Shown piece by piece: positions 5,732 to 42,343 of a stretch of DNA of 64,000 bases (position 1 is the stretch's first letter; each line of letters starts with the position of its first letter). The stretch is from Candidatus Multivoraceae bacterium (GTDB taxonomy: Bacteria > Acidobacteriota > Thermoanaerobaculia > Multivoradales > Multivoraceae), in contig CBDCWR010000007.1 in the NCBI GenBank assembly GCA_965223385.1, positions 2,413,803 to 2,477,802 on the forward strand, in the 5' to 3' direction. Under the pieces are notes generated by a model. That model saw nothing but the letters and a program-made list of their open reading frames with translations. It was not told where the DNA came from and ran no database searches. The position numbers and the translations under genes were made by a program.

Positions 5732-6499
5732 TCAGTTCTGCGGCTGCGTCTTTTCGAGGGCCTCCTGCAGCGCCTCGATCTGCTTCTGCTGCTCCTGGAC
5801 GACCCGGGCGAGCAGCGCGACCACGTCCATGCTGGCGAGTGTCTTGCGCTCGGGGTCCGCGATCAGCTCGGGCACGTCTTCCGCGATGAAGCCGAGTCGG
5901 GGGTCTTCGGGCGCCGCCTTGTAGTTGAAGGTGACCGGGCGCAGGTGGAGGAGCGCGCGCAGAGCGTCTTCCGCCGAGATTGCAGCGATGTTCTCTTTGA
6001 GCGCGCGGCTGGAGGCGTTCGTCCATACGCCACCCACCGTCAGGTGGGCCCCGCTCAGCTGCGCTTCGATCGGGTGGCCCGGGTTGAAGCCGTTGCCGAA
6101 GGTCGAGTCGAGGTGGAGCCCCACGAACCCTTCGTTGTCCACCATGAAGCGCTCCACGTTTGCGGTCATGAAGTAGAACGAAGGGTTCGGCGCCACCGCG
6201 CCGGCATCCGCGCGCACGTTGACGAAGCCGGAGGAGCGTCCGAAGCTCGAGCCCGAGTAGCCGAAGTTGAACGCAGGGCCGACGTTGGGATTGGGACCCA
6301 TTCCAGCGAAGAGGTCGGCCGTACCGGAGCCGGCGATGTGGAACATGCTCAGCGGCGTGTCCGTGCGGATGCCGACGTTGTTGTTGAGCACCGTCAGGGT
6401 GTCCTGGGCGACCAGGCTCGTGGCGCCGAACAGGAGTCCAGCAACCAGGAAGATGGTGGAAGCCGTGGCCTTCGGGTGGCCTCCGGTGACGTTGTGCAT
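5732..6499 (-). CDS. Tail-fibre-domain protein with C-terminal intramolecular chaperone (peptidase S74) domain, secreted
   Basis: A 255-aa product from MHNVTGG with a signal peptide and a Gly/Asn-rich N-terminal part. The C-terminus SSRALKENIAAISAEDALRALLHLRPVTFNYK matches the endosialidase-chaperone (S74) autocleaving motif. The remainder of the 811-aa ORF 5732..8167 is antisense to the ADOP permease. Confidence 0.65.
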   Translation of the reverse strand: MHNVTGGHPKATASTIFLVAGLLFGATSLVAQDTLTVLNNNVGIRTDTPLSMFHIAGSGTADLFAGMGPNPNVGPAFNFGYSGSSFGRSSGFVNVRADAGAVAPNPSFYFMTANVERFMVDNEGFVGLHLDSTFGNGFNPGHPIEAQLSGAHLTVGGVWTNASSRALKENIAAISAEDALRALLHLRPVTFNYKAAPEDPRLGFIAEDVPELIADPERKTLASMDVVALLARVVQEQQKQIEALQEALEKTQPQN

Positions 6500-6612
6500 G
6501 GGCGATCCCCCTCGCTGCGGACGTGTGATGTCGAATCGACGTATGCCGATGGCATCATAGTGGAGGCGACGCCACAACTCCGCCTCCGCGAGGGGACGCC
6601 TCTCGAGGGCCC

Positions 6613-9201
6613 TCAGTCGGCGCGAATCGCCTGCGCGGGGTCGATGCGCAGAGCGCGCAGCGCCGGCATCAGCGACCCCAGCAGGGTCATGAGAGCGCAG
6701 AGAACTGCGACGGCTCCGAGCGTCCAGACGTCGGCCGGGGGAACACCGGCGAGGAGCGCGCGCAGTGTCCGCGCGGCGCCGAAGGCGAGGAGCGCTCCCA
6801 CCACGAGACCACCGGCCGCGAGAGCGGCCCCGCGCCCCAGCACCAGTCCGAGGATGTCGGGGCGGGCCGCCCCCAGGGCCACGCGCACGCCGATCTCGCG
6901 CTGACGCTGCGACACGAGGAAGGAGAGCAGCCCGTGGATGCCGACCGCTGCGAGCAGGAGCGCCACCACGGCGAATGCGACGACCACCCGGAGCTGCCCC
7001 GTGCGCGATGCCGTCTGGGCGTCGACGATCTGGCGGAGCGTGCGCACGTTGGACACGGGCTGGAACGGATCGGCACGCGCCACGATGTCGCGTGTGACCT
7101 CCGTCAGCGCCTCCGGGTTGATGCTGCTGCGAATGGCGAGGTCTTTTGGCACGTAGAAGCTCAGCGAGCCGTCGGGCACCTGTGCCGCCGGGAGGTACAC
7201 CTGGGGCTCGCTGGGCCGCTCGAGGCCACGCACGCGCACGTTGCCGACGACCCCCACGATCTCGCGCTCCTGGAAGGCGAACTCGAAGCGCTCTCCGAGC
7301 GGCGGCACGTCGGGGAAGAAGCGGTCGACGAACGACTGACTGACCACCGCAACCGGCGGCGCGTCCTGGCGGTCGCTCGGCTCGATGCCCCGCCCCCGCA
7401 GAAGAGGAATCTGCAGCGTGTCGAGCAGGCCGGACGTGGCAAAGCGGAGGCTGGCTGCGCTGCCGCCTTCGCGGCGCCCGGCGTTCTCTTCGGTCGCCAC
7501 CGGCCAGATGCCACCGGTCATCGTCATGGGCAGGAAGCTGATGAAGCCGGCGTCGTCCACTCCGGGGAGTGCACGGATCTCGTCGACCACCTGTTGGTAC
7601 CAGGCCACCCGCTCTTCGGTCTGGGCGTACTGGGGCATGGGTAGAGCGACGCGCAGAGTGAGCACCTGGTCGGGCTCGAAGCCGGGGTCGACCGCTTGGA
7701 CGCGCCAGAGCGCCCGCAGCAGCAGACCGGCCGAGACGAGGAGGACCACCGAGCAGACGATGCCCGCCAGAACGAGCGCCGAGCGCAGCCCCTCGCGTCG
7801 GCCGCCGCCTCCGCGGTCGTGCTCGGCGAGCGCCGAGAAGCCGCCTCGCCCGATGCGCAGCGCCGGCAGCACCCCGATGGCGACGCCGGTGAGCAGGGTG
7901 AGCGCGCCGGCGAAGGCGAGCACCGTGAGGTCGACGGACGGCCGCGTGTCCACCGGGAGGTTGTGCGGCACCATGCTGGCGAGCAGTGGGAGGGAGGCGA
8001 CGGCGACACCCACCCCGAGCGCCCCTCCGGCGCCGGCCAGCACCAGGCTCTCGGTGAGCAGCTGGCGGGCGAGGCGCTCTCGCCCCGCACCCATGACGGC
8101 CCGCACCTGCAGCTCGCGCCGGCGCGCCAGGCTGCGCGCGAGCAGCAGGTTGGCGAGGTTGATGCACGTGATCAGCAGCACGCAGAGGGCGGCTCCGGCG
8201 AGGGCGAGCACGAGCAGGCGCGCCTGCTGCGAGAACTCCTGCCGGAGTGCCACCACGTTGGCGCCCACGTCCTTGTTCAACACCGGGTTCTCCTCCTCGA
8301 CCCGCGCGGCGATGCGGTCGAGCTCCGCCTGCACCTGCGCCAGATCGGTGCCAGGGTGCATGCGCCCGACCACCTTGAGGAAGTTGTTGTTCCGATCGAG
8401 GAGGTCCTCTTCGGGAATCTGCAGCGGCGCCCAGTAGTCGACCTCGCGGTTCGGGAAGAGGAAGGTGGGCGGCATGATCCCGATCACGGTGTGATCCCGA
8501 CCGTCGAGCTGGACGACCTCGCCGAGGAGGCTGCGGTCGCCGCCGAAGCGTGCCTGCCAGAGGCGGTGGCTCAGCACCGCGACAGGGGGTGATCCCACCA
8601 CGTCGTTCTCCGGCACGAAGCCGCGCCCCAGAGCCGGCCGGACGCCGAGCGTGTCGAACAGGCCCGACCCCACCACGGCGCCCTGCAGGCGCCGGGGGCG
8701 CCCCTCGCCGCCGACGAGGTTGGCTGCCGTCTCCGTGTAGGGCGCCCAGCTCTGCAGTGTGGTGATCTGTTCCGACCAGTCCTCGTAGTTGGGGGGCGAA
8801 AGCTCCATGCGGCTGTAGCCGACCCGCTTCTCCCAGAGCTTCACCAGCTGGTCACTCTGCGGAAACGGCAGAGGCCGCAGGAGCACGTAGTCGGCGACGG
8901 AGAAGACGGCCGTGTTGGCTCCGGTGCCGAGGGCGATGATCGCGATCGCGGTGAGCGCGAATGCGGGAGCGCGTCGGTACGCACGGAGCGTGTGTCGCAC
9001 GTCTTGGCGGAGGAGGTCGGCGTGCACCGCGGCGGCGTTGCCGGCGACCTCGAAGCAGGCCGCAAGCAGCATCCAGAGCCGCGCCAACGTGCCCCTCTCG
9101 GCGCGCCACCGGTCGCGGAAGATGGCACTCATCTCGGGCCCGTACTCGTGCCGGAACGAGGCGGGGTAGAGGCGCAGGAGAAGCCGATAGAAGGCCATCA
9201 T
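6613..9201 (-). CDS. ADOP-family ABC transporter permease (FtsX-like, MacB-type periplasmic domain, permease-prefix domain)
   Basis: An 862-aa product with an N-terminal prefix MMAFYRLLLRLYPASFRHEYG and duplicated FtsX permease halves. Its start overlaps the PadR stop (ATGA). Confidence 0.8.
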   Translation of the reverse strand: MMAFYRLLLRLYPASFRHEYGPEMSAIFRDRWRAERGTLARLWMLLAACFEVAGNAAAVHADLLRQDVRHTLRAYRRAPAFALTAIAIIALGTGANTAVFSVADYVLLRPLPFPQSDQLVKLWEKRVGYSRMELSPPNYEDWSEQITTLQSWAPYTETAANLVGGEGRPRRLQGAVVGSGLFDTLGVRPALGRGFVPENDVVGSPPVAVLSHRLWQARFGGDRSLLGEVVQLDGRDHTVIGIMPPTFLFPNREVDYWAPLQIPEEDLLDRNNNFLKVVGRMHPGTDLAQVQAELDRIAARVEEENPVLNKDVGANVVALRQEFSQQARLLVLALAGAALCVLLITCINLANLLLARSLARRRELQVRAVMGAGRERLARQLLTESLVLAGAGGALGVGVAVASLPLLASMVPHNLPVDTRPSVDLTVLAFAGALTLLTGVAIGVLPALRIGRGGFSALAEHDRGGGGRREGLRSALVLAGIVCSVVLLVSAGLLLRALWRVQAVDPGFEPDQVLTLRVALPMPQYAQTEERVAWYQQVVDEIRALPGVDDAGFISFLPMTMTGGIWPVATEENAGRREGGSAASLRFATSGLLDTLQIPLLRGRGIEPSDRQDAPPVAVVSQSFVDRFFPDVPPLGERFEFAFQEREIVGVVGNVRVRGLERPSEPQVYLPAAQVPDGSLSFYVPKDLAIRSSINPEALTEVTRDIVARADPFQPVSNVRTLRQIVDAQTASRTGQLRVVVAFAVVALLLAAVGIHGLLSFLVSQRQREIGVRVALGAARPDILGLVLGRGAALAAGGLVVGALLAFGAARTLRALLAGVPPADVWTLGAVAVLCALMTLLGSLMPALRALRIDPAQAIRAD

Positions 9202-9557
9202 GCCCCCTCCTTCGCAAGGCCCGCGCGTCGGGCGAGAGCGACCAGGTCCGCCAGGCGTCCCATTTCGGCCTGGGCGACGGAGCGGCCGAAGCTGGTGAGG
9301 CCGTAGTAGCGCCGTCGCTCGTCGTCCAGCTCGGGCGCGGGCCGTTCGCGCAGCTCGCGGATGAGCCCCTGCTCGAGCATGCGCTGGATGGAGCGGTAGA
9401 GCGTTCCCGCGCTCATGCGCACCTTGCCGCCGGTGTTCGCTTCGACGGTCTGCAGGATCGCGTAGCCGTGCAGATCGGAGTCGGAGAGTGCCACCAGAAT
9501 GTGAAAGGTGGACGTGGGCAGGGGAAGGAGTGCGTCGGGGGATGGGTCTCGCGTCAT
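9198..9557 (-). CDS. PadR-family transcriptional regulator
   Basis: A 119-aa product with LPLPTSTFHILVALSDSDLHGYAILQTVE... typical of the PadR winged HTH. It is co-transcribed with the ADOP permease. Confidence 0.8.
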   Translation of the reverse strand: MTRDPSPDALLPLPTSTFHILVALSDSDLHGYAILQTVEANTGGKVRMSAGTLYRSIQRMLEQGLIRELRERPAPELDDERRRYYGLTSFGRSVAQAEMGRLADLVALARRAGLAKEGA

Positions 9558-9799
9558 TGTCGGCTCCTGGTGCCTGCGGAGGCCGTCAGTTCGCCTCGAC
9601 CGGAGCTCGAAGGGGAGCTCGCTCGCGGCAGAATCTCTCCGCTCTGGCTATATCCGCACTGGCTATAGATGTACGAGGCATCGGGCCGCGGGTTGCAGGG
9701 GCGACCCCGCCAAGGGATCGCCCGCGATCTCGCTTAGGATCGCTGGATCCGAACCGCCTCGGTCTGCGCGTCCGCGACCGACCTCGAAGAGGGAACCCC

Positions 9800-12700
9800 A
9801 TGCCGACCATCCTCCCGGGCTCCGGCCCCGCGCTGCGTGTGCTCGCAGCAACGCTGCTCCTCCTCGTCCTCTTGCCACGGGACCTGACCGGTCAGCAGGG
9901 CCGGAAGGGCTACTACCGACAGCCGGCCCTCTGGGGCGACACGGTGGTCTTCGCCGCGGAGGGTGACCTGTGGGTCGCGACCACGGCCGGAGGCGTTGCC
10001 GAGCGACTGACGGCCCACGCCGGCGCCGAGAGCCACCCCGCGATCTCACCCGACGGCCGACAGGTGGCGTTCACCGCGGCCTACGACGGCCCACCCGACG
10101 TCTACGTGATGCCGCTCGCCGGCGGTCGTCCGCAGCGGCTGACCTGGGACAACGATCCGTCCACCGTGGTCGGCTGGACTCCCCAGGGAGAAGTGCTCTA
10201 CACGTCGCCGCGCTACTCGACCCTGCCCGGTCCGGAGCTCCTGGCGATCGCGCCGGAGAGTGGGGCGTGGCGTCGCATTCCGCTGGCACAGGCGAGCGAC
10301 GGTAGCTTCTCGGACGACGGTCGGACGCTGGTGTTCGCGCGCCCCGGCTTTCACCGCAACAACACCCGGCGGTACGAAGGCGGCACCGCCCGCAACCTCT
10401 GGCGCTTCACGGACGGCGACGCCGAGGCGGTCAACGTCACTCCGGACCACGCGGGAGAAGACCACTCGCCGATGGTGTCGGCCGGAACCCTCACCTGGGT
10501 GAACGACGCGAGCGGCATGATGAACCTCTGGTCGATGCCCCTCGAAGGGGGCGCCAAGACCCAGCTCACCGACCACGAAGAGTGGGACGTGAAGTCGCCG
10601 GCGCAGGACGCCTCCCGCCGCACCCAGCGCATCGTGTACCGCCTCGGCGCAGACCTCCGCCTGTTCGACCCCGCCACGGGAGACGACCGCGAGATCGACC
10701 TCTTCCTCCGCTCCGACTTCGACCAGCTCGCCGAACGCTGGGAGGACACGCCCGGGCGTCAGATCACCGCCATGGCGTTGGACCACACCGGAGAGCGGGT
10801 GGCGCTCACGTCGCGCGGGCGCGTCTTCGTCTTCCCGGCGAAGCACGGGCGTCGCCTCCAGGTGGACCGTCAGCCGGGAGTGCGCTACCGCAGCGCCACC
10901 TTCCTCGACGAGGATCACATCCTGCTCGCCTCGGACGCCACCCGCGAGGTGGAGTTCGTGGCCGTGCCGGCCAACGGCATCGGTGAGCGCCGGCAGATCA
11001 CGCGCGGCGCGACCACGCTGCGCTTCGCCGGCATTCCGTCTCCCGACGGCTCCCGGATCGCGTTCACCGACAAGAACAACGACCTGCGCATCGCCGTTGT
11101 CGAGACCGGCGACGAGCGCGTCGTCTCGCAGAATCGCGAGGGTGTGCAGAGCTTCGAGTGGTCGCCCGACGGCAAGTTCCTCGCGTACTCGGGCGCGGCG
11201 CTCAACACGTTCGTCCAGATCTTCCTCTACGAGCTGGCGACGGGCGACCAGATCCAGGTGACGAGCGACCGCGTCAACTCGTACTCGCCGTCGTGGTCGC
11301 CCGACGGCAGGTGGCTCTACTTCCTCTCCGACCGCAACCTGCGGTCGCTCGTGGGCAGCCCGTGGGGCCCGCGCCAGCCGGAGCCGTACTTCGACCACGC
11401 CATCGAGATCTACCAGGTGGGCCTCGAGGAGGACGCGCGCCCGACCTTCTGGTCCGACGACGAGCTCGTGCGCGAGGCGAAGAAGGCGGAAGCCGAGGCC
11501 AAGAAGGAGGCGGCCGATGGGGCGGAGGAATCGGAAGGGAAGAGCGAGAGCCAGGGCAAAGGCGACGAGAAAGACGAGGTGAAGGTCACCGTCGACCGCC
11601 ACGGCCTCGAGAGCCGCGTGTGGAAGCTGCCCGTCGACTCGGGCAACTACTTCGGGTTGAGCGCCGTGCACGATGCCCTGCTGTACTTCTCGCGCGACAG
11701 CGGCCCCGACGCGGAGATGCACCTCGTGGGCCTCTCGACGAAGCCGGACTCGAAGCCCGTGACGATGGTGTCCGACGTGCGCGGGTTTCAGATCTCAGGC
11801 GATCGCAAGAAGGCGCTCGTGCGCAAGGGCCAGGCCCTGCACGTGGTGGACGCGGCGCCCCGCAAGGCCGATCTCGGTGAGACGAAGGTCGATCTGTCGG
11901 GCTGGCGCTTCCCGGTGTCGCTCGCGGAAGACTACGAGCAGATTTTCGTGGACGCGTGGCGTCTCGAGCGCGACTACTTCTACGACCCCGGCATGCACGG
12001 TCTCGACTGGGAGGCCGTGCTCGAGAAGTACCAGGCGCTGCTGGAGCGGGTGACCACGCGCGACGAGCTGTCCGACCTCATCGGCGAGGTGGTCGCCGAG
12101 CTCGCGGCGCTCCACGTCAGCGTGCGCGGCGGGGAGCACCGCGAAGCGGAGGACGACATCAACGTGGCGAACCTCGGTGCGCGGCTGCGACGCAGCGAGG
12201 GTGATGGCGGCTACGTGATCGAGCACCTCTACCGCACCGACCCCGACTATCCCGAGTGGCGCGGCCCTCTCGCCGATCCGTACCACCGCGTGGACAATGG
12301 CGACGTTCTGGTGGCGCTCAACGGCACTTCGCTGCTGAGCGTGCGTGCGCCGGGTGAGCTGCTGCGCAACGAGGCCGGCCAGCAGGTGCGGCTCACCCTG
12401 CGCGACGCGGGCGAGAAGGAGACCCGCGACATCTTGGTGCGACCGCAGGCGCGCGAGTCGAGTCTGCGTTACCACGACTGGCAGTACAGCCGCCGGCTCG
12501 AGGTGGAGGAGCGTGGCGAGGGTCGGATCGGCTACGTGCACCTCCGCGCCATGGGCAGCAGCAACCTCTCCGAGTGGTACCGCAACTTCTACCCGGTCTT
12601 CGACCGCCAAGGTCTGATCATCGACGCGCGTCACAACCGCGGCGGCAACATCGACAGCATCATCCTCGAGAAGCTGCTGCGCCGGGCGTGGTTCTACTGG

Positions 12701-13132
12701 AAGGGCCGCACCGGAATCCCGACCTGGAACATGCAGTACGCCTTCCGAGGGCACATGGTGGTGCTGGTCGACGAGAACACCGCCTCCGACGGCGAGGCGT
12801 TTGCCGAGGGGTTTCGGCGGTTGGGCCTCGGCCCCGTGATCGGCACGCGGACCTGGGGCGGCGAGATCTGGCTGAGCAACAACAACCGCCTCACCGACGG
12901 CGGCATCGCCCGCGCTCCACAGACCGGCGTGTACGGGCCGGAGCGCGAGTGGCTGATCGAAGGGTGGGGCGTCGAGCCCGACATCGTGGTGGACAACCTG
13001 CCCCACGAGACCTTCAAGGGCCGCGACCGCCAGCTCGAAAAGGCCGTGGAGGTGCTGCTCGAGAAGATCGCGGAAGACCCGCGCGAGGTGCCGGCGCCTC
13101 CCGAGTACCCGGACAAGTCTTGGAAGCCGTGA
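9800..13132 (+). CDS. Tricorn protease homologue (S41B peptidase with beta-propeller and PDZ domains)
   Basis: ATG at 9800 is preceded by GAGGGA and followed by a signal peptide (MPTILPGSGPALRVLAATLLLLVLLP). The 1110-aa product has propeller repeats and a C-terminal S41 domain. The upstream part of ORF 9488..13132 lacks an RBS and is likely not translated. Confidence 0.8.
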   Translation: MPTILPGSGPALRVLAATLLLLVLLPRDLTGQQGRKGYYRQPALWGDTVVFAAEGDLWVATTAGGVAERLTAHAGAESHPAISPDGRQVAFTAAYDGPPDVYVMPLAGGRPQRLTWDNDPSTVVGWTPQGEVLYTSPRYSTLPGPELLAIAPESGAWRRIPLAQASDGSFSDDGRTLVFARPGFHRNNTRRYEGGTARNLWRFTDGDAEAVNVTPDHAGEDHSPMVSAGTLTWVNDASGMMNLWSMPLEGGAKTQLTDHEEWDVKSPAQDASRRTQRIVYRLGADLRLFDPATGDDREIDLFLRSDFDQLAERWEDTPGRQITAMALDHTGERVALTSRGRVFVFPAKHGRRLQVDRQPGVRYRSATFLDEDHILLASDATREVEFVAVPANGIGERRQITRGATTLRFAGIPSPDGSRIAFTDKNNDLRIAVVETGDERVVSQNREGVQSFEWSPDGKFLAYSGAALNTFVQIFLYELATGDQIQVTSDRVNSYSPSWSPDGRWLYFLSDRNLRSLVGSPWGPRQPEPYFDHAIEIYQVGLEEDARPTFWSDDELVREAKKAEAEAKKEAADGAEESEGKSESQGKGDEKDEVKVTVDRHGLESRVWKLPVDSGNYFGLSAVHDALLYFSRDSGPDAEMHLVGLSTKPDSKPVTMVSDVRGFQISGDRKKALVRKGQALHVVDAAPRKADLGETKVDLSGWRFPVSLAEDYEQIFVDAWRLERDYFYDPGMHGLDWEAVLEKYQALLERVTTRDELSDLIGEVVAELAALHVSVRGGEHREAEDDINVANLGARLRRSEGDGGYVIEHLYRTDPDYPEWRGPLADPYHRVDNGDVLVALNGTSLLSVRAPGELLRNEAGQQVRLTLRDAGEKETRDILVRPQARESSLRYHDWQYSRRLEVEERGEGRIGYVHLRAMGSSNLSEWYRNFYPVFDRQGLIIDARHNRGGNIDSIILEKLLRRAWFYWKGRTGIPTWNMQYAFRGHMVVLVDENTASDGEAFAEGFRRLGLGPVIGTRTWGGEIWLSNNNRLTDGGIARAPQTGVYGPEREWLIEGWGVEPDIVVDNLPHETFKGRDRQLEKAVEVLLEKIAEDPREVPAPPEYPDKSWKP

Positions 13133-13157
13133 CGGTTCGCGACGTCACTCCAGGGTT

Positions 13158-14789
13158 TCAGGGCCCCGCTGCCCGTCGCAGCGCGAGCGTGCCACCCCTG
13201 CGCCGATCGTCGACGTACCCGACGAGCTCGTCTCCCCGCGCCTCCGCTTCGATGCGAAAGCTCTGGGAGCCCAGCGCGACGGTGAAGCCGAGCCGCTCCC
13301 CGCGGCGCTCGACGTCGCGCACCGCCCTCTGACGCAGGCCAAGCTCGGGGACGTCGAGGAAGATGCGACCGTCTTCGACGGTGATGGCCATGGCGTACTC
13401 CGCCCGCAGGTACGTCAGGCGCCCTTCGAAGCGGCCTTCCGCGATTCCAGGGGCAGCGGCCGCGAAGCGAACGACCCAGTCGAGCGCAGGGTCGCGACCC
13501 TGGAGGACACTCTCGACGGTTTGTGGGGCGTCGACCGTGGGCACGATCGCGGTCCTCTGGTCGAGCGGGTGAGAGTACTGCCACTGCCGGGTCGAGATCC
13601 TCACCGTGAGCCCCGAGTAGGGCAGCTGCCTCTTGGAGGCGTCGCCGTGGTGGTTCGGGGACGACCCCGTGGGCTCGCCCACGAAGATGGCGCGCGTGTG
13701 CCGCTCGAGGTCGACGGCGAGCATCATGGCGGCGGAGAAGGTGGCTCGGCCCGTCAGAACAAAAAGCGACCCTGCCTCGCGGAGTGCAGGGCTGCGAATC
13801 AGCGCGTGCACGAGGGGCTGGCTCAGGGAGTTGTCGCCGCCCCGGTTGTGACGCAGGTCGATCACGAGTCGCTCGAACCCGGGGTTTCCCAGAGCCTGCT
13901 CGAGGCGTTCCGAGAGAGCGGCCAGTGTCTCGCCTGGTCCGTCCCCGATCTCGTCGATGCGTAGGTAGAGGATGCCGCCGTCGATCTGCGTCATCAGGAA
14001 GGGAGACGGAAGGGGTCGCATCGAGACGGGCTGGTCGACCGTCAGGTCCCTCCACTCCACGGCCTGCCCCTGGGGAACGACCTGGAGCTGCAGGCTTTCG
14101 TCTCCCGTTTCCGTGGCGACGCGAAGCTCCAAGGTCTCCCGCTGGTCGATGACGCCACGGGCATGAAGGAGGTCCGGGAGCACCAGTCGCTCGGGGAGGT
14201 GGTACCGAAGCTGCCACTCGTTGTCGCGCTGGATGGTCGCACTCACCGCTTCGATCGCATCCTCGGTCGTGAGACCGCCGATCTGGATCACTTCGCGGCC
14301 GAGCACGCGCTCCCCGCCCGAAACACCTTGGCCGATGGCCGTGATCAAGAGGCGATCGTCGTGCGAGCCGAAGCGCACGGGAAACTGGCGCATGACGAGG
14401 TCCGGGAGCGAGGGCCTGGTGGGCGTGTGGCCCCGGAAGAACTCGATCTCGGAGTCCAGCGGCAGCGTGAGACGGGTGTGTCCGTCGCCGAGAAGGGCCA
14501 CGATGCGGGCGAGATCGACCACGATCTCGTGCGGCTCGAGGCTCTTCAGCCGGCGCTCGAGCTCCAGGAGCTCTCGCTCGAAGGTCGCGCGGTCGATCTT
14601 CGTGAACGGTTCCGGATGGACCCGAGGCAGCTCGACCTGGAGATGGCGCAGATCACAGCGCCAGCCGTCGACCTCCGAGGGCGAGAGCGCGCCGGCTCTC
14701 GAGCTTGCGAGTGAGGGGAGGATGCCGAGGAGCATCGCCAAGGGAAGGGTCAGGAACAGGGCGGACGCTCGGTGTCGAGGAACAGGCAC
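13158..14789 (-). CDS. S41-family peptidase (C-terminal processing protease-like), secreted
   Basis: A 543-aa product with a signal peptide and DLRHNRGGDNSLSQ plus a TGSSPNHHGD region, typical of S41. It is convergent with the tricorn protease. Confidence 0.75.
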   Translation of the reverse strand: MPVPRHRASALFLTLPLAMLLGILPSLASSRAGALSPSEVDGWRCDLRHLQVELPRVHPEPFTKIDRATFERELLELERRLKSLEPHEIVVDLARIVALLGDGHTRLTLPLDSEIEFFRGHTPTRPSLPDLVMRQFPVRFGSHDDRLLITAIGQGVSGGERVLGREVIQIGGLTTEDAIEAVSATIQRDNEWQLRYHLPERLVLPDLLHARGVIDQRETLELRVATETGDESLQLQVVPQGQAVEWRDLTVDQPVSMRPLPSPFLMTQIDGGILYLRIDEIGDGPGETLAALSERLEQALGNPGFERLVIDLRHNRGGDNSLSQPLVHALIRSPALREAGSLFVLTGRATFSAAMMLAVDLERHTRAIFVGEPTGSSPNHHGDASKRQLPYSGLTVRISTRQWQYSHPLDQRTAIVPTVDAPQTVESVLQGRDPALDWVVRFAAAAPGIAEGRFEGRLTYLRAEYAMAITVEDGRIFLDVPELGLRQRAVRDVERRGERLGFTVALGSQSFRIEAEARGDELVGYVDDRRRGGTLALRRAAGP

Positions 14790-27153: not shown

Positions 27154-27753
27154 CTACGCACGTGGGCGGGGCCAGAAGCGGCCCGTGCGCGCCATGTACT
27201 CGCGGTAGTCGTCGCCGAAGTGCTCGATGAGCGCCTCCTCTTCGGTGCGCAGACGAAAGACCACCACCAGGAAGAGGAGCGCGAGGAAGCTTCCCCCGAC
27301 GCCCCAGTGGTCGGTGAAGAGCAGCACGGTCACGCCCCACGCGAACGAGCCGGTGTACATCGGATGGCGAATGCGCGCGTAGGGCCCGGTGGTCACCAGC
27401 TCCTGCTCGTCGAACGTGATCACGTACTTGGCGCCGGCCTTGCCGATGGTCTTGAACACCCAGCACAAGAAACCGAGGCACAGCAGAGACGCGGCGAAAC
27501 CGGCCCAGCGCACCGCGACGGGCAGCCCGATGTGCATCCACGGCGGGTCCCAGGAGAAGAGGTAGGCGAAGAACGCGGAGTAGAACGCCAGGCCCGCAAC
27601 GCCCATGACGACGAAGACGACCTTCTTCTCCTGGACCCGGCGGCCCTCCTTCTTTCCCACCGCCATGCCGGCGTACGCGCCCCGCACGACGCCCATGCCG
27701 AGCATCTCGACCACGAGGGCCAGGCGCATGAAGAGATCCAGGTCAATCGGCAA
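27154..27753 (-). CDS. Isoprenylcysteine carboxyl methyltransferase (ICMT/PEMT)-family membrane methyltransferase
   Basis: A 199-aa multi-TM protein with the RIRHPMYTG and EEALIEHFGDDYREY C-terminal motifs of the ICMT family. Confidence 0.65.
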   Translation of the reverse strand: MPIDLDLFMRLALVVEMLGMGVVRGAYAGMAVGKKEGRRVQEKKVVFVVMGVAGLAFYSAFFAYLFSWDPPWMHIGLPVAVRWAGFAASLLCLGFLCWVFKTIGKAGAKYVITFDEQELVTTGPYARIRHPMYTGSFAWGVTVLLFTDHWGVGGSFLALLFLVVVFRLRTEEEALIEHFGDDYREYMARTGRFWPRPRA

Positions 27754-27873
27754 GGCTGCTTTCGGCTCGCGGAGGGTTTGGGAACGGTCTCGCAGGGCAC
27801 ATCGCTCGCCTCGATGCTACAGGTCGAGAGGCGCGCTCGTCGGGCTATCGTGTGAGCCCACGGGAGGTGTGCG

Positions 27874-29568
27874 ATGAGTGCGAACCGCAGGGCCCTGACG
27901 ATCTTCCAGATCACGCCTTCGATCGACGGTGCCGACGTGTCGAGCTTCGACCAGGTCGTGCAGGCCTCCGCTCTCACCGACCCTCAGCTGCAGACGACGG
28001 AGCTCCCGGCGGGCTTCGACTTCGACGGCCGGCTGTATGTGATCGCCCCGGCCCCCGAGGAGCCGCGCTGGGGGGCGTTCCTGCGCGAGGGTTTCGGCGA
28101 CACGTTCAACCTGTCCGCCACGGCGACCAACCGCGCACTGCTCGTGATCCGTTTTCGCTACTACAACGCCGACCGCTACTTCGCGGTTGCGTTCGGCGCG
28201 GGCCGCCACCTGATGCGTCGTGACGCCTACGTGCGCTCGTTCGGGCTGAAGGCGGCGCTCAACCTGATTTACGAAGACGACGTCCTCGACGGCAGCGCGT
28301 CGAGCGATCGCGTGCGCCAGGTCGATTCGCGGACCGTCGCGGGTAACACGTTCCGGACGCGGCGCCAGGCGAACCGCGACACCACCTTCGAGCAGTTCGG
28401 CTTGGACACCGAGCGCGATCTGCTGAGCACGGTCACCGGGGAGCCGAGTGATCGGACCGAGCTGGGCTCCCGCGTCTTTGGTGCCGATCACGTCGGCGTC
28501 AATCTGCCGATCGACTTCTCCGGCCTCGTCGGCCTCTGCAAGAGGCTCTGGCGGGCGGGGCGTGCCGACGACTACGAGACGCACTTCAGCTGGATCGACA
28601 ACCTGTCGGCGATCGCGGAGCCCGCGCGCCTCGAGGCGCTGCGCTCCGCGGTGGTGCAGCAGCTGCGCGATGGTGCCGTGGGCGCCTTCGAACTGGCACC
28701 ACCGGAACTGGTCGACTTCGACGCGATCGAGACCTTCCGGATCGAGGTCGGCGCCAACGACGTCTCGGTGGCCGACCTCACTCTCAGCGCGTACCTCGCA
28801 CTGTTCGACGCTGGCGGACTCGCGGCGCTCACCTGGGACCGCATGAAGTCGCACCGTGTCGCCGCGCTGTCGGCCCAAGGTGAGCTCCTCCACAGGTGGC
28901 CCGTCTCCGACTGCCTGTTCGGCGAGCTGGACGACGACGGCGAGACCGTGCTGCTCGACGCGGCCGAGTTCTTCGCCGTCGCCGCCGACTTTCTGGCCGA
29001 CCTCGACGCGTTCGTCGCGGCGATCCCGGAGTCCGACGTCGACCTTCCCGACTCACGCATCGACGCGAACGGCCGGGAGATCAGCGAGGGGGTCTACAAC
29101 GTGGAGGCAGCGCAACACCTTCCCACGCATCTGCTGCTCGACAAGCGCACCGTCAGGGTGGCACCCAACACGAGCTCGATCGAGATCTGTGACGTGCTCA
29201 CGACGGACCGCAAGTTCGTGCACGTGAAGCGCAAGCTGGGCTCCGCGTCGCTGAGCCATCTCTTCTCGCAGGGCTACGTGTCGGGCGACCTGTTCGTGAC
29301 CAGCCACGAGTACCGCACGGCCGTTGCCGCCGAGATTGCAGCTGCCGAGGCAGACAAGGGCTCCGGGCCGATCTTCACGAACGCGCTCGACTTCCAGGCC
29401 CCCGACCCGGCTGCGATCGAAGTGGTCTACGCGGTGGTGGCCAACTGGAACGGCGACAGCGTGGTCGACCGCCTGCCGTTCTTCTCGAAGGTCAACCTGC
29501 GCCGCCACGCCACCGACCTGAGACGCCTCGGCTACGAGGTGACGTTCAAGCGCATCGACATTGCGTGA
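27874..29568 (+). CDS. DUF6119 / TIGR04141-like sporadically distributed protein (function unknown)
   Basis: ATG at 27874 has a GGGAGGTG RBS. The 564-aa product has a C-terminal region KFVHVKRKLGSASLSHLFSQGYVSGDLF that resembles, from memory, the TIGR04141 family. It abuts the left end of the low-GC island. Family assignment is tentative. Confidence 0.55.
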   Translation: MSANRRALTIFQITPSIDGADVSSFDQVVQASALTDPQLQTTELPAGFDFDGRLYVIAPAPEEPRWGAFLREGFGDTFNLSATATNRALLVIRFRYYNADRYFAVAFGAGRHLMRRDAYVRSFGLKAALNLIYEDDVLDGSASSDRVRQVDSRTVAGNTFRTRRQANRDTTFEQFGLDTERDLLSTVTGEPSDRTELGSRVFGADHVGVNLPIDFSGLVGLCKRLWRAGRADDYETHFSWIDNLSAIAEPARLEALRSAVVQQLRDGAVGAFELAPPELVDFDAIETFRIEVGANDVSVADLTLSAYLALFDAGGLAALTWDRMKSHRVAALSAQGELLHRWPVSDCLFGELDDDGETVLLDAAEFFAVAADFLADLDAFVAAIPESDVDLPDSRIDANGREISEGVYNVEAAQHLPTHLLLDKRTVRVAPNTSSIEICDVLTTDRKFVHVKRKLGSASLSHLFSQGYVSGDLFVTSHEYRTAVAAEIAAAEADKGSGPIFTNALDFQAPDPAAIEVVYAVVANWNGDSVVDRLPFFSKVNLRRHATDLRRLGYEVTFKRIDIA

Positions 29569-29784
29569 GGACGGGGTTCGGTTGGTCAAGATGCGCCGAG
29601 GCGCTCGTAGCGGCGAGGTCCGCGGGGGGCTGACCTAGCGACTCGAGTCGGTAGCGCGGAGGATTACGGAACCGCGTCCGTCTGGAGGCGAAAGAGCAAC
29701 GCTCCGTTCGCGCATCGACGACGTCTCGGCGCATCGGGCTCCGGCCTTTCTCCGACCGCCCAGCCCCATTGAGGGAGAATCAAG

Positions 29785-31835: not shown

Positions 31836-32231
31836 ATGCGAGGGAGAATCACCAAGAAGGCTGTCGATGGATTGGCTCCGCGAATGGGTGCCGATGGTGC
31901 CCTTCGTGCTGAGCGGTTGTGGGATACGGATGTCACTGGCTTTGGGTGCCTGGTGACGAAGTCCGGGCACAAGAGCTACATCTTTCAGTACCGAACGCGG
32001 CAGCAGGCAAGCAGGACGCCCAAGCGGCTGACGATTGGGGCGCATGGCGAGCTCACCCCGGATGAAGCGCGCACCATTGCTCGAGAACTCCTGTTCAAGG
32101 TCCGCTCCGGAGAGGATCCGGCTCTTGAGTGGAGAAGGGTCAAAGGTGAGACGTTCGGAGACCTCGCGGATCACTTCATGCGCACGTACCTGCCGGCGAA
32201 GAAGCGGCCTCCGAGGGCATCCACCAGAAGT
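31836..32231 (+). pseudogene. P4-type tyrosine integrase, N-terminal (DUF4102 arm-binding) fragment truncated by IS insertion
   Basis: ITKKAVDGLAPRMGADGALRAERLWDTDVTGFGCLVTKSGHKSYIFQYR...GELTPDEARTIARELLFKVRSGEDP is a typical arm-DNA-binding domain. The ORF reads through into the IS terminal repeat at about 32231. No catalytic domain lies downstream. Confidence 0.65.
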
Positions 32232-32260
32232 GAATCGCTCCGAGTTTCCCGGAGACCTTT

Positions 32261-33495
<1,235 letters not shown>

Positions 33496-36421: not shown

Positions 36422-37636
36422 CTAGGCTCCTTGGCTGAACGGGACCACAGACGCAAGCCCTGAGCCGCTAGCGATACCCCTGACGCGCTCGCCCCAAAGC
36501 TCGAGGGCCGCCCTCTTCTCGTCGTCGTAGGCGTGACGGTTGTAGATGGCAGTTATCGAATGGTCCGCGTGATTGAGGATGCGGCTGATGATCGGTGGCT
36601 CGACGCCAAGCCGAGCCATGTGCGTGGCCGCGGTCCGTCGAAAGTCATGGGGTGTCCAGTCACGTGTGCCACTTCGCTGGCGTAGACGGCTAGTCGCTCG
36701 AGTGAGACGGCCGATAGGGCGACCAGGGTTTACGGGACTCTCGAACACGAACTCGTTGTGGCCTGTCGTGTCCTCCAGTCGGAGGATCGACTCCATGGCT
36801 AGCTCCGACAATGGAACGCGGCTCGCTCTAGCACTCTTCGTGTCAGCCGCGGGAATTGTCCACCAGGCGCCCTCGATGTCTACCCATCGCATCGTCCGGA
36901 CCTCACCAGGCCGTTGGGCGGTGAGGAGCAGGACGCGGTACATCGCCGCGGTGACGGGCTGCTCGTCGTTGAGGGCGCTCCAGACAGCTTCGATCTCCTC
37001 CTCGGAAAGTCGGCGCTCCTTTGGAGTCTCCTTCGCTGGCCTGTCCACCAGCAAGGCGGGGTTCGTGTCCGCGTAGCCTCGCTGTAGGCCGAAGTTGAAC
37101 ATCTTCGAGATGAGCGCTCGAAGCCGATTTGCCGCTACGGGTGCTCTCTTGGCCTTCTCATCGAGGAGGCGAGCGACCTCGACTCGCCCGATTTCGGCCA
37201 CGGGGATGCCTGACCACGCAGGCAGTAAGTCGGACCGGAGATAGCGTTCGTCTTCGCGCCAGGACGATTCGCGCTTTTCTCTGCGGGCGTAGTTGTCGAG
37301 GTAGTCGGAGGCAAGAGCCTCGAAGGTGCGGCCAGCGGCAAGCGCAGCGGCGCGCTGAGCGCTCTTCTGCTCCGCTACGGGGTCGAGGCCATCGGCGACG
37401 TCCTGGCGGAGCCTGCGGGCCCGTTTGCGAGCGTCTGAGAGGCTCAGGTCAGGGTAGTTGCCGAGCTTCTTGCGACGCTGCCCGCCATCAGGTCGTCGGA
37501 AACGGAGCATGAACGCCTTGGAGCCGTCGCAATTGACTCGGAGGACCAGGCCTGGAACTTCGCCGTCTCGGATCTCATAGCGCCGTGTTCGAGGCAGGAG
37601 GGATCGAATAGTCCTGTCCTGGAGGATTGTGGCCAT
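36422..37636 (-). CDS. Tyrosine-type site-specific integrase (P4-like, DUF4102 N-terminus), apparently intact
   Basis: Starts at MATILQDRTIRSLLPRTRRYEIRDGEVPGLVLRV. The catalytic region has HDFRRTAATHMARLG...ILNHADHSITAIYNRH (R..H..R..Y). The in-frame ORF extends to 37810. Confidence 0.85.
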   Translation of the reverse strand: MATILQDRTIRSLLPRTRRYEIRDGEVPGLVLRVNCDGSKAFMLRFRRPDGGQRRKKLGNYPDLSLSDARKRARRLRQDVADGLDPVAEQKSAQRAAALAAGRTFEALASDYLDNYARREKRESSWREDERYLRSDLLPAWSGIPVAEIGRVEVARLLDEKAKRAPVAANRLRALISKMFNFGLQRGYADTNPALLVDRPAKETPKERRLSEEEIEAVWSALNDEQPVTAAMYRVLLLTAQRPGEVRTMRWVDIEGAWWTIPAADTKSARASRVPLSELAMESILRLEDTTGHNEFVFESPVNPGRPIGRLTRATSRLRQRSGTRDWTPHDFRRTAATHMARLGVEPPIISRILNHADHSITAIYNRHAYDDEKRAALELWGERVRGIASGSGLASVVPFSQGA

Positions 37637-37820
37637 GTTTGCGAATGCCTCCTCCGCGACTCGGGACACGTGGGGGACGCGCCGACATCGCGATTTGGTG
37701 AGGCAGCATGCTACATCATGGAGTCTCTTGAGACCAGCTGTAACCCATACAAAATGTATTGTTTGGGCGCCATGACTCAGTTTGAACCCTTCCGTGCGGG
37801 ACTCGTTCAAGAGAGCGGGA

Positions 37821-37980: not shown

Positions 37981-39123
37981 GTGAACGCTGAGCGACTGCA
38001 TGCGTTGGCTCTGGTGCTGAGGGAACACCTGAAAGAGCTGAACCTGCCCGCCTCACTGGCTGCACTCGAGTCCGAACTAAGTACGCTGGTCTCAAGTCCC
38101 TCCGACGAGACTGCGCAGCTTCAGGTAAGTCTGAAGCGGAACGAGCTGATCGCCGGCTTGGAGTCTTCGCTTCGGGACGAAGGTCCCTTGTTTGCCGATG
38201 GCATTCAAGAGCTTGGAGTGGATGGCCTGGTAGGACCAGGACTTGCCGGTGCGCTTCGTAGCGCGCTTGCGGGCGAGGATCTCACTCCAGCGGCGGCACA
38301 GGCGGGGGTTGAGCGGCTGCGTTCAGAGGTCGCAATGCTCGAAGGGCACCTCAAGAGCTTGGTAAATGCTCTTGAGAGTTTCCATGTTGGCCACGAGTTG
38401 CTCGGCCCTGGGGAAGCTGAACTCGCCGTCGTAATCCCACGGTCAGCCGTGAAGAACGAGGTGGGAGAGCTCGCAGATGATCTCGAGGGGCTGGACAAGA
38501 TCTTCGGCTGCCTGGCTGAGGTTGCGACTGGCCAGAGGGCCGACCTCAAGATCCGGACGATCTCCTCGTCCGATCTCACCTTCCTCCTGGAGGTGCTTCC
38601 GGAGGTTGGTGCGGCTATTGCCTTCTCGGTGCGGTGGCTGGTGCAGACGTACAAGGACGTCTTGGAGATCAAGAAGAACCGCCAAGATCTGGCGAACAAG
38701 GAGATCCCTCAGGAGGTGCTGGACGACCTCGATGCGCACATTCAGGAGCGGGTCGATGCTGCGATAGCGGATGGCGTTGAGGAACTGTTCAAGGAATTCG
38801 ACAAGCGCCGGCCGGCGGGCAGAAAGGAAGAGCTAAGGAACGAGCTCCGACGCTGGCTCGGAGAGCTGATGAAGCGCATCGACCACGGCTACCATGTCGA
38901 AGTTCGAGCTGCGCCGAGAGAGGACGGAGAGGAGGAAGAGGAGAGGGACGAGTCCGCTGAACACCTCGAGAAGATCTCCGAGCTAGCGGCTCAGACCCCC
39001 TACGTCGCCATCGCTGGGAGGCCCGTTCTCTATCTGCCGGGACCCGACGATCAAGAGGACGCTGATGGCGCCGCGGACGAAAGTCCAGACGAGCCCGACG
39101 AGAGCGAAGATTCCGAACCCTAG
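37981..39123 (+). CDS. Hypothetical protein (380 aa, predicted alpha-helical, acidic C-terminal tail), orphan island cargo
   Basis: GTG start with a GGGGAGGG RBS. No recognisable motif. The C-terminus is DEPDESEDSEP. Its stop TAG is the first triplet of a 36-bp direct repeat. Confidence 0.6.
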   Translation: MNAERLHALALVLREHLKELNLPASLAALESELSTLVSSPSDETAQLQVSLKRNELIAGLESSLRDEGPLFADGIQELGVDGLVGPGLAGALRSALAGEDLTPAAAQAGVERLRSEVAMLEGHLKSLVNALESFHVGHELLGPGEAELAVVIPRSAVKNEVGELADDLEGLDKIFGCLAEVATGQRADLKIRTISSSDLTFLLEVLPEVGAAIAFSVRWLVQTYKDVLEIKKNRQDLANKEIPQEVLDDLDAHIQERVDAAIADGVEELFKEFDKRRPAGRKEELRNELRRWLGELMKRIDHGYHVEVRAAPREDGEEEEERDESAEHLEKISELAAQTPYVAIAGRPVLYLPGPDDQEDADGAADESPDEPDESEDSEP

Positions 39124-39156
39124 ACACCGCCCGCACGATCGGCCCAAGCGACCGGG
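39121..39156. repeat. 36-bp direct repeat, copy 1 (TAGACACCGCCCGCACGATCGGCCCAAGCGACCGGG)
   Basis: 35/36 identical to copy 2 at 40427..40462. It starts at the stop codon of gene 37981..39123. Confidence 0.6.
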
Positions 39157-39448: not shown

Positions 39449-40363
39449 ATGGTCAGTAGCCGACGACTGGCCGTGACCGTACTGATCGTCGTGACGCTGG
39501 GCCAGCCCAGTGCCGGCTGGTCCAGCGAGGCTGCGTTTCCAACGGGAAGCCGAGGAGCTTGGACGCGGAACAGCGGCGAAGAGCGTCTGAACGTCACCGA
39601 GTCTCACATTGTCCACCACCACAACGGCCTGCTCAAAGTCCGGAAGCTGCTCAGCATCGACCGGCTGCAGGCCAAGCTCCGATTCAACGGTACCGAGTCT
39701 TGGGTTGCCTTCTATGTCCAAGATGAGCATCTGTACTTCGCGGATCGGAGCTTCGAGAGAGTGTCGCCGATACCTGACGATCTCCAAGTCCTTACTCCAT
39801 TCCAAATCCCTCAGCCGTCCGCCGCTGCCGCCAGCGACATCGAGGCCGCACAGGGGCTTCTGAGGCTCATGATCCGGAATGACCAACGGCTCCGAAAGGA
39901 GCGGCGTCCGCCAGACGAGCTGCGGCGCGCAGGCAAGAGGCATGCCGAAAAACTAAAAGGGATCCTAAGAAACCAGGGCTGGATCGACATCCACAGATTC
40001 GGCCCTGAGGCAGCGATGAACGCGTTTCTGGTCGTTCAGCACAGCAATGACCTGCCGCTGATGCTCTCCGCACTGCCGCTGATCAAGAGTGATCTCGAGA
40101 ATCTCGGAGGTCGAGAGGCAGGGGACATGTTTGCGCTGCTCTTCGATCGCATAAGAGTGCGAACAGGCGAGCTTCAACGCTACGGCAGTCAGCTCAACGA
40201 AGACGCCACAGGTCCATACGTTCTCCCCTTAGAAGATCCGTGCAGCATTGACGACCTTCGCCAAGCTATCGGCCTTGAGCCTCTGCAGGAATACGTAGCG
40301 ATCGCATCGAAGGAGTTCTATGCAGGACGCCCAGTGCGCCTTCTCACCCCCTGCGAGCATTAG
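39449..40363 (+). CDS. Hypothetical secreted protein (304 aa), orphan island cargo
   Basis: A perfect AAGGAGG RBS lies 9 nt upstream of the ATG. Signal peptide-like MVSSRRLAVTVLIVVTLGQPSAG. No recognisable catalytic motif. The gene is bracketed by the 36-bp direct repeats. Confidence 0.6.
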   Translation: MVSSRRLAVTVLIVVTLGQPSAGWSSEAAFPTGSRGAWTRNSGEERLNVTESHIVHHHNGLLKVRKLLSIDRLQAKLRFNGTESWVAFYVQDEHLYFADRSFERVSPIPDDLQVLTPFQIPQPSAAAASDIEAAQGLLRLMIRNDQRLRKERRPPDELRRAGKRHAEKLKGILRNQGWIDIHRFGPEAAMNAFLVVQHSNDLPLMLSALPLIKSDLENLGGREAGDMFALLFDRIRVRTGELQRYGSQLNEDATGPYVLPLEDPCSIDDLRQAIGLEPLQEYVAIASKEFYAGRPVRLLTPCEH

Positions 40364-40426: not shown

Positions 40427-40462
40427 TAGACACCGCCCGCACCATCGGCCCAAGCGACCGGG
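40427..40462. repeat. 36-bp direct repeat, copy 2 (TAGACACCGCCCGCACCATCGGCCCAAGCGACCGGG)
   Basis: One mismatch to copy 1. It lies immediately upstream of the ATG at 40469. Confidence 0.6.
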
Positions 40463-40468
40463 GGTGCG

Positions 40469-41083
40469 ATGGCGGCTCACAACTCGAGGTTCCGGGTGCA
40501 GTCCTACACGGGCGACTCGGAGTGGCTCCAGCCGGTGGAGGTTTTCCTCTTCCGCGGCTACCAGAAGGTGGGGCAGACGCGGCACCTCGGCCCGAATCGC
40601 TACTGCCCGACCACCCTGGCCACGCTCCAGACGAACGCGGACCGGCTCTTCCTCTCGCCTGAGACGCGCACGCTGGCAGCCTCTGAAGGCTGCCCGAGCT
40701 CGCCTCTGCTCCTCTGGGTCGAGAGCGCCTTTGACTCAGCTCTGAGCGGCTTCAGCGGCGCTGTGGTGCCTCTTCTCGAGCAGGGCGTGGGCGACGACGA
40801 CCCGAGGCTTGCGCTGGCGCTCAGGAACGTGTCAGGGCGCCTGAAGACAGCCTCCGAGGAGGAGAAGCAGGCCGTCATGGACTGGCTTGAGGACTCAGGC
40901 ATGCGCGAGCAGGTGCCCGAGACGTTGAAGACCTCCCCGAGGTGCTTTTGGGCGTCGCTGGCGGTGGCCGAAGAGGCCGCCACTAGAGAGCGCTACCCCG
41001 TCGCCTCGGGATCCCAGTCGCGAGCCCAGCCACCATTTCGGATCTCCTTGGCTAGTTCGAGGATCTCCGGGTGCTTTGCGTAG
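40469..41083 (+). CDS. Hypothetical protein (204 aa), uncertain
   Basis: ATG follows a GGGGG stretch. The central part is protein-like (EEEKQAVMDWLEDSGMREQVPETLK). The 3' 90 nt overlap the convergent TPR gene, so the true end is uncertain. Confidence 0.35.
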   Translation: MAAHNSRFRVQSYTGDSEWLQPVEVFLFRGYQKVGQTRHLGPNRYCPTTLATLQTNADRLFLSPETRTLAASEGCPSSPLLLWVESAFDSALSGFSGAVVPLLEQGVGDDDPRLALALRNVSGRLKTASEEEKQAVMDWLEDSGMREQVPETLKTSPRCFWASLAVAEEAATRERYPVASGSQSRAQPPFRISLASSRISGCFA

Positions 41084-42042: not shown

Positions 42043-42343
42043 TTTCACTTGTCGCGACTCTTGGTGTCCATCATCTCCGCTAGCGACGCCACGGATCGGA
42101 GGCTGATCTCGGACCGGCCTGCAGGAGCGGGGGCGCAGCTTCGAGGGAGTCTTTCCGACGGAACGGGGGAGCGCTCATCGCCATCGCGAGACGGGCACCC
42201 GAGTTCGTCCGGCGTCAGGCATACTTCACCCGCGAAGCGATCTCGGCGCATACGTCGCCGTGTTGGACGAGGGCCGCGAAGCGACGCGGCTCATCCAGGG
42301 GAGGCGTCTCCTGCAACGGGTCGCTCCTGCTTGAGTTGACGAA

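Follow-up and report, generated by a model that had tools for sequence, protein, structure and literature searches.

Several described immune systems offer points of comparison for single-gene defence candidates. Shedu (SduA) is a single-protein defence nuclease in which N-terminal sensing domains precede a C-terminal PD-(D/E)xK domain, and HamA, the nuclease effector of Hachiman, works together with the HamB helicase. Time and again, genes nested in type I restriction-modification (R-M), BREX, DISARM and Hma clusters have turned out to encode defence systems (10.1101/2024.01.29.577857), and TgvAB provides a precedent for such a role in a gene nested in an R-M-type cluster (PMC11411939). This report concerns a 564-aa gene of the DUF6119/TIGR04141 family found in a stretch of 64,000 nucleotides (hereafter the window) of the acidobacterium Candidatus Multivoraceae bacterium (assembly GCA_965223385.1, contig CBDCWR010000007.1, positions 2,413,803 to 2,477,802 of the forward strand). 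A first-pass annotation, made from the letters of the window, had placed this gene at the edge of a genomic island and suggested that it might encode a single-gene defence or abortive-infection protein. The genomic associations of the family and its predicted fold support that suggestion; the window copy, for its part, does not lie in a recognisable defence island.

The best-supported reading, to which we give a probability of about 0.5, is that the DUF6119 protein is a stand-alone defence nuclease acting against phages or other invading DNA, a reading built on guilt by association and on a predicted nuclease fold. If true, a family of ~5,000 clusters found in hundreds of species and many phyla would represent a new one-gene defence nuclease with an N-terminal module unlike those of known systems, and would add to the few cases of a second immune gene nested, with translational coupling, inside a type I R-M operon. 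New here are the domain-level structural reading, a candidate set of catalytic residues, figures for the association of the family with type I R-M and other defence genes, and evidence that the gene travels as a unit of its own. DUF6119 is a solid and easily testable defence candidate, and one that would not surprise a specialist.

Family membership, spread and genomic neighbours

The window protein is unambiguously a full-length member of the DUF6119/TIGR04141 family. The first-pass annotation had proposed TIGR04141 on the basis of the C-terminal motif KRKLGSASLSHLFSQG, and a profile hidden Markov model (HMM) search bore it out, since two curated models match at full length: Pfam PF19614 (DUF6119; E = 3.9e-123, 412.3 bits against a cut-off of 27, profile positions 10-524 of 524) and NCBIfam TIGR04141 (E = 1.7e-108, 363.4 bits against a cut-off of 35, positions 2-516 of 516). 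A Pfam search of the window protein at E values up to 1 returned nothing besides DUF6119. Exhaustive profile searching retrieved 4,908 clusters (50% identity) at E <= 1e-3 and 2,415 at E <= 1e-30, nearly all of them 520-600 aa long with one full-length match stretch; apparent gene fusions, in open reading frames (ORFs) of 650-1790 aa, were dismissed as start-codon extension artefacts in high-GC DNA. The distribution is sporadic. A scan of one genome per species (185,579 representatives) found the family in at least 579 species, belonging to the Acidobacteriota, Actinomycetota, Planctomycetota, Chloroflexota, Myxococcota, Bacillota, Bacteroidota and other phyla, plus one archaeon (Methanosaeta). 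Copies are also present on 18 plasmids (10 conjugative), in the integrase-flanked end region of one Pseudomonas phage record, and in two IMG/VR contigs.

RefSeq names the homologues DUF6119 or TIGR04141 'sporadically distributed protein', and the PHROGs entry for the family, phrog_18579, reads 'unknown function'. The 5,027 models of PADLOC-DB v2.0.0 yielded zero matches for 11 family members (the window protein and 10 diverse homologues); PADLOC-based surveys of immune repertoires thus do not count DUF6119. Among the listed rows of the supplementary tables to the preprint on guilt by embedding, the names DUF6119, PF19614 and TIGR04141 were not found. The family turns up three times in the searchable literature, each time incidentally and never with a function, and no relative has a solved structure, so that the annotation was right to speak of a protein of no characterised function.

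The neighbourhoods of homologues were surveyed at 86 loci, all flanking ORFs being clustered, and a separate tally was made of 113 nearest neighbours, which is an undercount because ORFs shorter than 159 aa were dropped. Homologues proved to have variable neighbours, with strong enrichment next to defence and mobile-element genes, and did not show the core-genome setting among constant metabolic genes that would have spoken against the annotation's suggestion. At the 86 loci, the three largest families of neighbours are HsdM (18 loci), HsdR (15) and HsdS (11); components of type I R-M systems lie within 7 kb of the DUF6119 gene at 19 of the 86 loci, on both sides at 7, and these R-M-associated loci are scattered over several clades of the family tree. 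A random gene would be expected within 7 kb of a type I R-M system in well under 1% of cases, a figure estimated from general knowledge rather than from a computed control. The top eight Pfam families among the 113 nearest neighbours are all type I R-M domains. The association extends to the interior of operons: 7 loci of the genome scan and 3 RefSeq plasmids, at least 10 loci in all, have DUF6119 between hsdS/hsdM and hsdR. Examples of R-M-embedded copies are those of Paracoccus albus p3 (11845-13572) and Mameliella alba pKUB257 (130030-131703). According to the RefSeq annotation, three alphaproteobacterial plasmids share the order hsdM-hsdS-[TIGR04141/DUF6119]-hsdR-SprT, with stop/start overlaps of 1-4 nt. 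Further nearest neighbours in the tally comprise ApeA-HEPN proteins (3), patatins (2), integrases (2), IrrE-like peptidases (2), BrxL and an HmaA helicase. Single loci place DUF6119 beside OLD-like AAA_15, AAA_13, SIR2-TPR and RHS genes, beside a Bil-type E2/ThiF gene together with a tightly linked patatin, or beside a PLD gene, a TIR gene with a deaminase, an ATPase with an S8 peptidase, or a gene for a giant NACHT protein. Across the 86 loci, DUF6119 has no conserved partner gene.

Several of these loci deserve a description of their own. In the three plasmid operons, hsdR overlaps by 4 nt with the gene behind it, which encodes a SprT-family zinc metalloprotease (L091, 11826-12542; L092, 9091-9807; L094, 10745-11461), and an AbiEi/AbiEii pair stands upstream and a PIN/HTH pair downstream in L091 and L094. 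Taken together, these genes make up compact multi-system defence blocks on conjugative or mobilisable plasmids. Two metagenomic loci may represent two-gene variants with an added effector: in L006 a patatin-like phospholipase gene (11688-12857) lies 3' of DUF6119, co-oriented, after a 14-bp gap, and in L003 a gene for a PLDc_2 protein (11705-13780) does so after a 37-bp gap. Three actinobacterial loci (L060, L071 and L075) show hsdR, a 188-bp gap, DUF6119, a 38-bp gap and an ORF of ~492 aa (e.g., 11517-12992 in L060). Three neighbours in the tally match ApeA_NTD1 and HEPN_Apea and are most likely these downstream ORFs; if so, DUF6119 is sandwiched there between a type I R-M system and an ApeA-type HEPN gene. 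In Parafrigoribacterium mesophilum (L063), the gene for a full-length HmaA helicase with a NOV_C domain (6367-9795; PADLOC E = 0) lies directly upstream of DUF6119, so that the family has at least one copy next to an Hma system, the kind of defence system on which 'guilt by embedding' was established. Five other actinobacterial loci (L035, L036, L038, L041 and L084) share, 0.3-6 kb upstream of DUF6119, genes for a conserved 393-aa XRE-HTH/IrrE-like (Peptidase_M78) protein and for a 247-aa protein, and all of them except L084 also encode upstream a relaxase-like protein of ~1,190 aa; this upstream set suggests carriage on an integrative conjugative element.

Mobile surroundings of this kind could also mean that the protein serves the element rather than its host, as a maintenance or DNA-processing factor involved in exclusion, recombination control, addiction or the processing of the element's own DNA. 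Copies on conjugative plasmids adjoin type IV secretion system and relaxase genes, the actinobacterial group has its conserved upstream XRE/ImmA-like, 247-aa and relaxase-like genes, the window gene abuts an island bearing an integrase and an IS3 element, a passing remark in a preprint states that the family is commonly linked to mobilomes, and the N-terminal structural neighbour described below, RdgC, is a recombination-associated nucleoid protein. We nevertheless consider such a role unlikely. The placement of DUF6119 is repeated and specific, in type I R-M operons and beside McrBC, ApeA, Hma, NACHT, TIR and AbiE genes, and not beside replication, partition or transfer modules; many chromosomal copies have no mobility genes nearby, and the resemblance to RdgC is confined to the fold.

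The gene itself appears to be mobile. A copy of 84% nucleotide identity (L088) matches the window in blastn from 27862 to 29568 only, a stretch that opens with the ribosome-binding site and closes with the final base of the stop codon, and a copy of 73% nucleotide identity matches it from 27856 to 29564 only, from 6 nt upstream of the ribosome-binding site to 4 nt short of the end of the stop codon. The flanks of both copies are unrelated to the window: one of them follows a sulfatase gene, and the other stands beside genes for NERD, McrB/McrC and an HsdR-like/SLFN protein. With homology limited to the ORF and unrelated flanks, the DUF6119 gene therefore behaves as a single-gene unit. Such behaviour would also be expected of a selfish, homing-type endonuclease gene, a minimal cassette cleaving and invading intergenic sites, the hsdS-hsdR junction included, and spreading sporadically without benefit to the host; the sharp ends of homology, the insertion between co-oriented genes with overlapping stop and start codons, and the predicted combination of a DNA-binding module with a nuclease would all fit. 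We find this very unlikely. At 564 aa, the protein is far larger than free-standing homing endonucleases, its insertion contexts are extremely diverse and share no single conserved target, and phage genomes, in which such genes do well, hardly ever contain the family. Strong purifying conservation at 23-44% identity and a uniform length over thousands of clusters speak against it as well, and a search for flanking repeats or target duplications revealed none.

Predicted fold and invariant residues

An AlphaFold2 model of the window protein built from 85 homologues reached a mean predicted local distance difference test score (pLDDT) of 93 and a predicted TM-score (pTM) of 0.86, and a separate model of residues 1-400 reached a pLDDT of 91.6. 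This structure prediction describes an N-terminal module with an RdgC-like fold followed by a C-terminal domain with a nuclease-like fold (Table 1). The N-terminal part has one notable structural neighbour only, the DNA-binding protein RdgC, from which a nucleic-acid-binding or sensor module may be inferred. The model of the C-terminal domain displays the restriction-endonuclease-like alpha/beta core fold, its best structural neighbours are DNA nucleases, and it would be the catalytic part of the protein. Both resemblances are at the level of predicted folds. Homology to RdgC was rejected, as an alignment of the family profile to a shallow RdgC profile with hhalign gave a probability of 1.3% and Pfam RdgC (PF04381) had no match, and the similarity was kept at fold level. 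A whole-chain Foldseek search against the PDB gave no match at E <= 1e-3, the best ones (beta-clamps and phytochromes) having TM-scores below 0.15, which is noise.

Conservation was assessed in an alignment of 92 sequences that are 23-44% identical to the window protein, with R-M-embedded, plasmid and phage copies among them. In the C-terminal domain, E405, D440, H450, K452, S461, H462, Q466 and G467 are invariant in 92 of 92 sequences, and D423 and E437 are conserved in 91 of 92. The motif that had suggested the family corresponds to residues 452-467 (29227-29274) and is the most conserved stretch of the family. W66, F175 and G203, in the N-terminal part, are likewise invariant (92/92); tryptophan, phenylalanine and glycine residues of this kind usually have a structural role. 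All family-invariant residues tested (W66, G203, E405, D440, H450, K452, S461, H462, Q466 and G467) are present in the window protein. In the predicted secondary structure, the domain's first helix carries E405, a strand begins with D440, the strand after it holds H450-x-K452, and the next helix holds S461, H462, Q466 and G467. As modelled, the layout of E405, D440, HxK and Q466 is that of PD-(D/E)xK motifs, with a histidine replacing the usual acid, and the invariant residues could form a putative metal-dependent phosphodiesterase site.

In a variant of the defence reading, not exclusive of it, the C-terminal domain would cut RNA and the protein would be an abortive-infection ribonuclease, with the logic of PrrC or RnlA and with His/Lys chemistry on a PD-(D/E)xK-like scaffold. 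Four invariant or near-invariant acids (E405, D423, E437 and D440) point instead to metal-ion catalysis as in the DNases of this fold, and the nearest structures are those of DNA nucleases, which makes cleavage of RNA quite improbable.

The window copy and the adjacent island

The window gene is an ordinary and intact member of the family, special only by its position at the edge of an island. The ORF was confirmed as annotated, with its ATG start, and a Shine-Dalgarno sequence precedes it (Table 1); scans for sigma-70 promoters and for terminators around the gene found no match. Its composition is host-like, as the annotation had stated (GC 0.674; GC content at third codon positions, GC3, 0.896), and its codon usage diverges by 0.10 bits from that of the flanking core genes, whose GC3 is 0.87-0.94. 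To its left lie ordinary metabolic genes, for an M19 dipeptidase, an FAA-family hydrolase, GdhA and an ICMT-like methyltransferase. The last of these had been described as convergent with the DUF6119 gene; it is on the minus strand upstream, so that the two genes are in fact divergent, separated by a 120-bp spacer.

Table 1. Coordinates of the DUF6119 gene, its parts and neighbouring features in the window
Feature	Position	Strand	Basis or remark
DUF6119/TIGR04141 gene, complete	27874-29568	+	ORF listing; 564 aa plus stop codon, ATG start
Shine-Dalgarno sequence GGGAGG	27862-27867	+	Sequence; 6 nt ahead of the ATG
N-terminal two-thirds, residues 1 to ~385	27874-29028	+	Alpha/beta module, then beta-rich middle domain (predicted)
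C-terminal domain, residues ~400-564 (~165 residues)	29071-29565	+	PD-(D/E)xK restriction-endonuclease-like fold (predicted)
Putative active-site block, E405 to G467	29086-29274	+	Conservation in 92 homologues and predicted secondary structure
Divergent intergenic spacer, DUF6119 gene / ICMT/PEMT gene	27754-27873	.	120 bp; presumed promoter region
ICMT/PEMT methyltransferase gene	27154-27753	-	Pfam; upstream of the DUF6119 gene, head to head
Gap with compositional boundary, host-like DNA / lower-GC integrative island	29569-29784	.	216 bp after the DUF6119 stop codon; GC profile
Lower-GC integrative island	29785-~40400	.	GC3 of genes
Integrase N-terminal fragment (Arm-DNA-bind_3)	31836-32264	+	Stops exactly where the IS3-family element starts
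IS3-family element	32261-33495	-	orfB 32261-33178, orfA 33175-33495
ALIL programmed-frameshift pseudoknot of the IS3 element	33101-33217		Rfam, 108 bits
Toprim/DnaG primase-like protein, 603 aa	34174-35985	-	Weak PADLOC 'RTasDnaG-like' match, E 2e-6
Tyrosine integrase, intact	36422-37810	-	
DUF6624 gene	39449-40363		

Host-like composition and codon usage, core metabolic neighbours on the left and the ordinary neighbours of several homologues would be compatible with a host housekeeping nuclease of DNA repair or recombination that came to lie next to an island by chance. The scan of 185,579 species representatives, with relatives in at least 579 of them, tells against it, as does the finding that in no clade is any neighbour conserved besides defence and mobility genes. 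The closest relatives of the window protein (73-86% identity) are located in wholly different loci, and the ICMT neighbour fares no better: its best relative (70% identity) has neither flank of the window, and no synteny was found among ICMT relatives. Such a housekeeping role is the least probable of the explanations considered here.

The annotation was correct in setting the gene immediately to the left of the island. GC3 falls from 0.896 to 0.70 across 29569-29784, and all genes between 29785 and 40363 have a GC3 of 0.67-0.78 against ~0.9 for the host; the compositional break therefore falls within this gap. The island starts with a small ORF and a gene for an EF-hand secreted protein, and also carries a GNAT acetyltransferase gene and one unknown gene. 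It is a generic integrative element and not a recognisable defence island, and no hsd genes occur within 10 kb of the window copy, which is thus not embedded in an R-M operon.

The history of the island has left other marks. An older integrase gene, of which the N-terminal fragment is left, appears to have been disrupted by the IS3-family element, and the intact integrase gene adjoining the Toprim/DnaG-like gene resembles the arrangement of an integrase-plus-primase integrative element. A direct repeat of 36 nt (39121-39156 and 40427-40462; 35/36 identical, spacing 1306 bp) surrounds the DUF6624 gene and may mark a small inserted cassette, a duplicated terminator or an att-like site. No convincing att repeat was detected in a search of the island boundaries. 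A weak direct repeat at both low-GC edges (29724-29743 and 42241-42260; 16/20 bases, with the 11-nt exact core TCTCGGCGCAT) is rightly placed at the two boundaries but was judged too weak to represent att sites. A tRNA-Thr(CGT) called by ARAGORN at 40607-40702 on the minus strand was also discarded as an attachment site: it is 96 nt long, has no Rfam tRNA match at the gathering threshold and lies inside a 204-aa ORF (40469-41083). The call is probably a false positive, which would leave the island with no identified tRNA attachment site.

Weight of the defence reading and comparison with known systems

Several observations weigh against the reading of DUF6119 as a stand-alone defence nuclease. 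Among the sampled loci, ~78% have no type I R-M system nearby, and several, including most of the window's own subclade, have ordinary, metabolic or unannotated neighbours. Collections of phage and viral sequences rarely contain the family. The window copy is itself host-like in composition and has core metabolic genes as left neighbours, and PADLOC recognised no defence genes on the adjacent island, the weak DnaG-like primase match being the only one. As regards the nuclease, histidine stands where the canonical (D/E)xK motif has its acid (D440 ... H450-x-K452), the family profile HMM searched against all PDB sequences gave only chance matches to CYP51 (E ~0.1), and hhalign alignment of the C-terminal domain to the N-terminal nuclease domains of HsdR from the collected loci returned a probability of 0.4%. 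With no link to nucleases at the sequence level in these two comparisons, the nuclease call therefore rests on the fold and on the geometry of the motif.

If the defence reading is correct, the N-terminal ~385 residues, with their RdgC-like fold, would bind to nucleic acid or clamp it and detect a non-self cue, and would then license the C-terminal PD-(D/E)xK-type domain to cut by means of a metal site made up of E405, D423, E437, D440, H450 and K452, with Q466 placed on the helix that follows. The nuclease would need no nucleotide cofactor; as no NTPase domain or partner protein was seen, its logic would be Shedu-like or type-IV-restriction-like. In hsdM-hsdS-DUF6119-hsdR operons, the protein would probably provide a second line or back-up against DNA or phages that escape the R-M enzyme, in parallel with R-M-embedded PrrC or TgvAB. 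A broader proposal is that DUF6119 constitutes a widespread, unrecognised single-protein immune system, combining an RdgC-like clamp or sensor with a variant (D...HxK) nuclease, which would act alone in most genomes and as a guard or back-up of type I restriction when located between hsdS and hsdR; as a guard it might be triggered, for instance, by modified DNA or by anti-restriction proteins putting the R-M complex out of action. This proposal is put forward tentatively, as one somewhat less likely to be right than wrong.

With respect to described families, the window protein is a typical member of DUF6119/TIGR04141 and deviates from it in nothing, the family itself being known but uncharacterised, with no assigned function, fold or literature. 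None of the sequence tests applied makes it a member of Shedu, HamA/Hachiman, RdgC or any PADLOC v2.0.0 family. RdgC, a nucleoid- and recombination-associated DNA-binding protein (PDB 2owl), shows 4% identity and has no nuclease domain. HamA (PDB 8vxy) shows 10% identity to the DUF6119 protein, and no PADLOC HamA match was obtained; whereas HamA depends on its helicase partner, DUF6119 loci have no conserved helicase partner except HsdR in R-M operons, and there is none in the window. PADLOC HMMs of Shedu (SduA/DUF4263) matched neither the window protein nor the 10 diverse homologues, and the Pfam search of the window protein gave no Shedu match either; compared with Shedu, the N-terminal fold of DUF6119 is RdgC-like in the model, and its motif is D...HxK instead of D...ExK. 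Like PrrC and the TgvAB/GmrSD-like type IV enzymes, many DUF6119 homologues occupy the hsdS-hsdR slot, co-oriented and translationally coupled. Unlike them, the family has neither the ABC-ATPase and anticodon-nuclease domains of the former nor the DUF262/DUF1524 domains of the latter, and most members, including the window copy, are not embedded. By its presumed working logic, DUF6119 would thus stand closest to the Shedu-type single-protein PD-(D/E)xK nucleases and to the second-line systems embedded in R-M operons.

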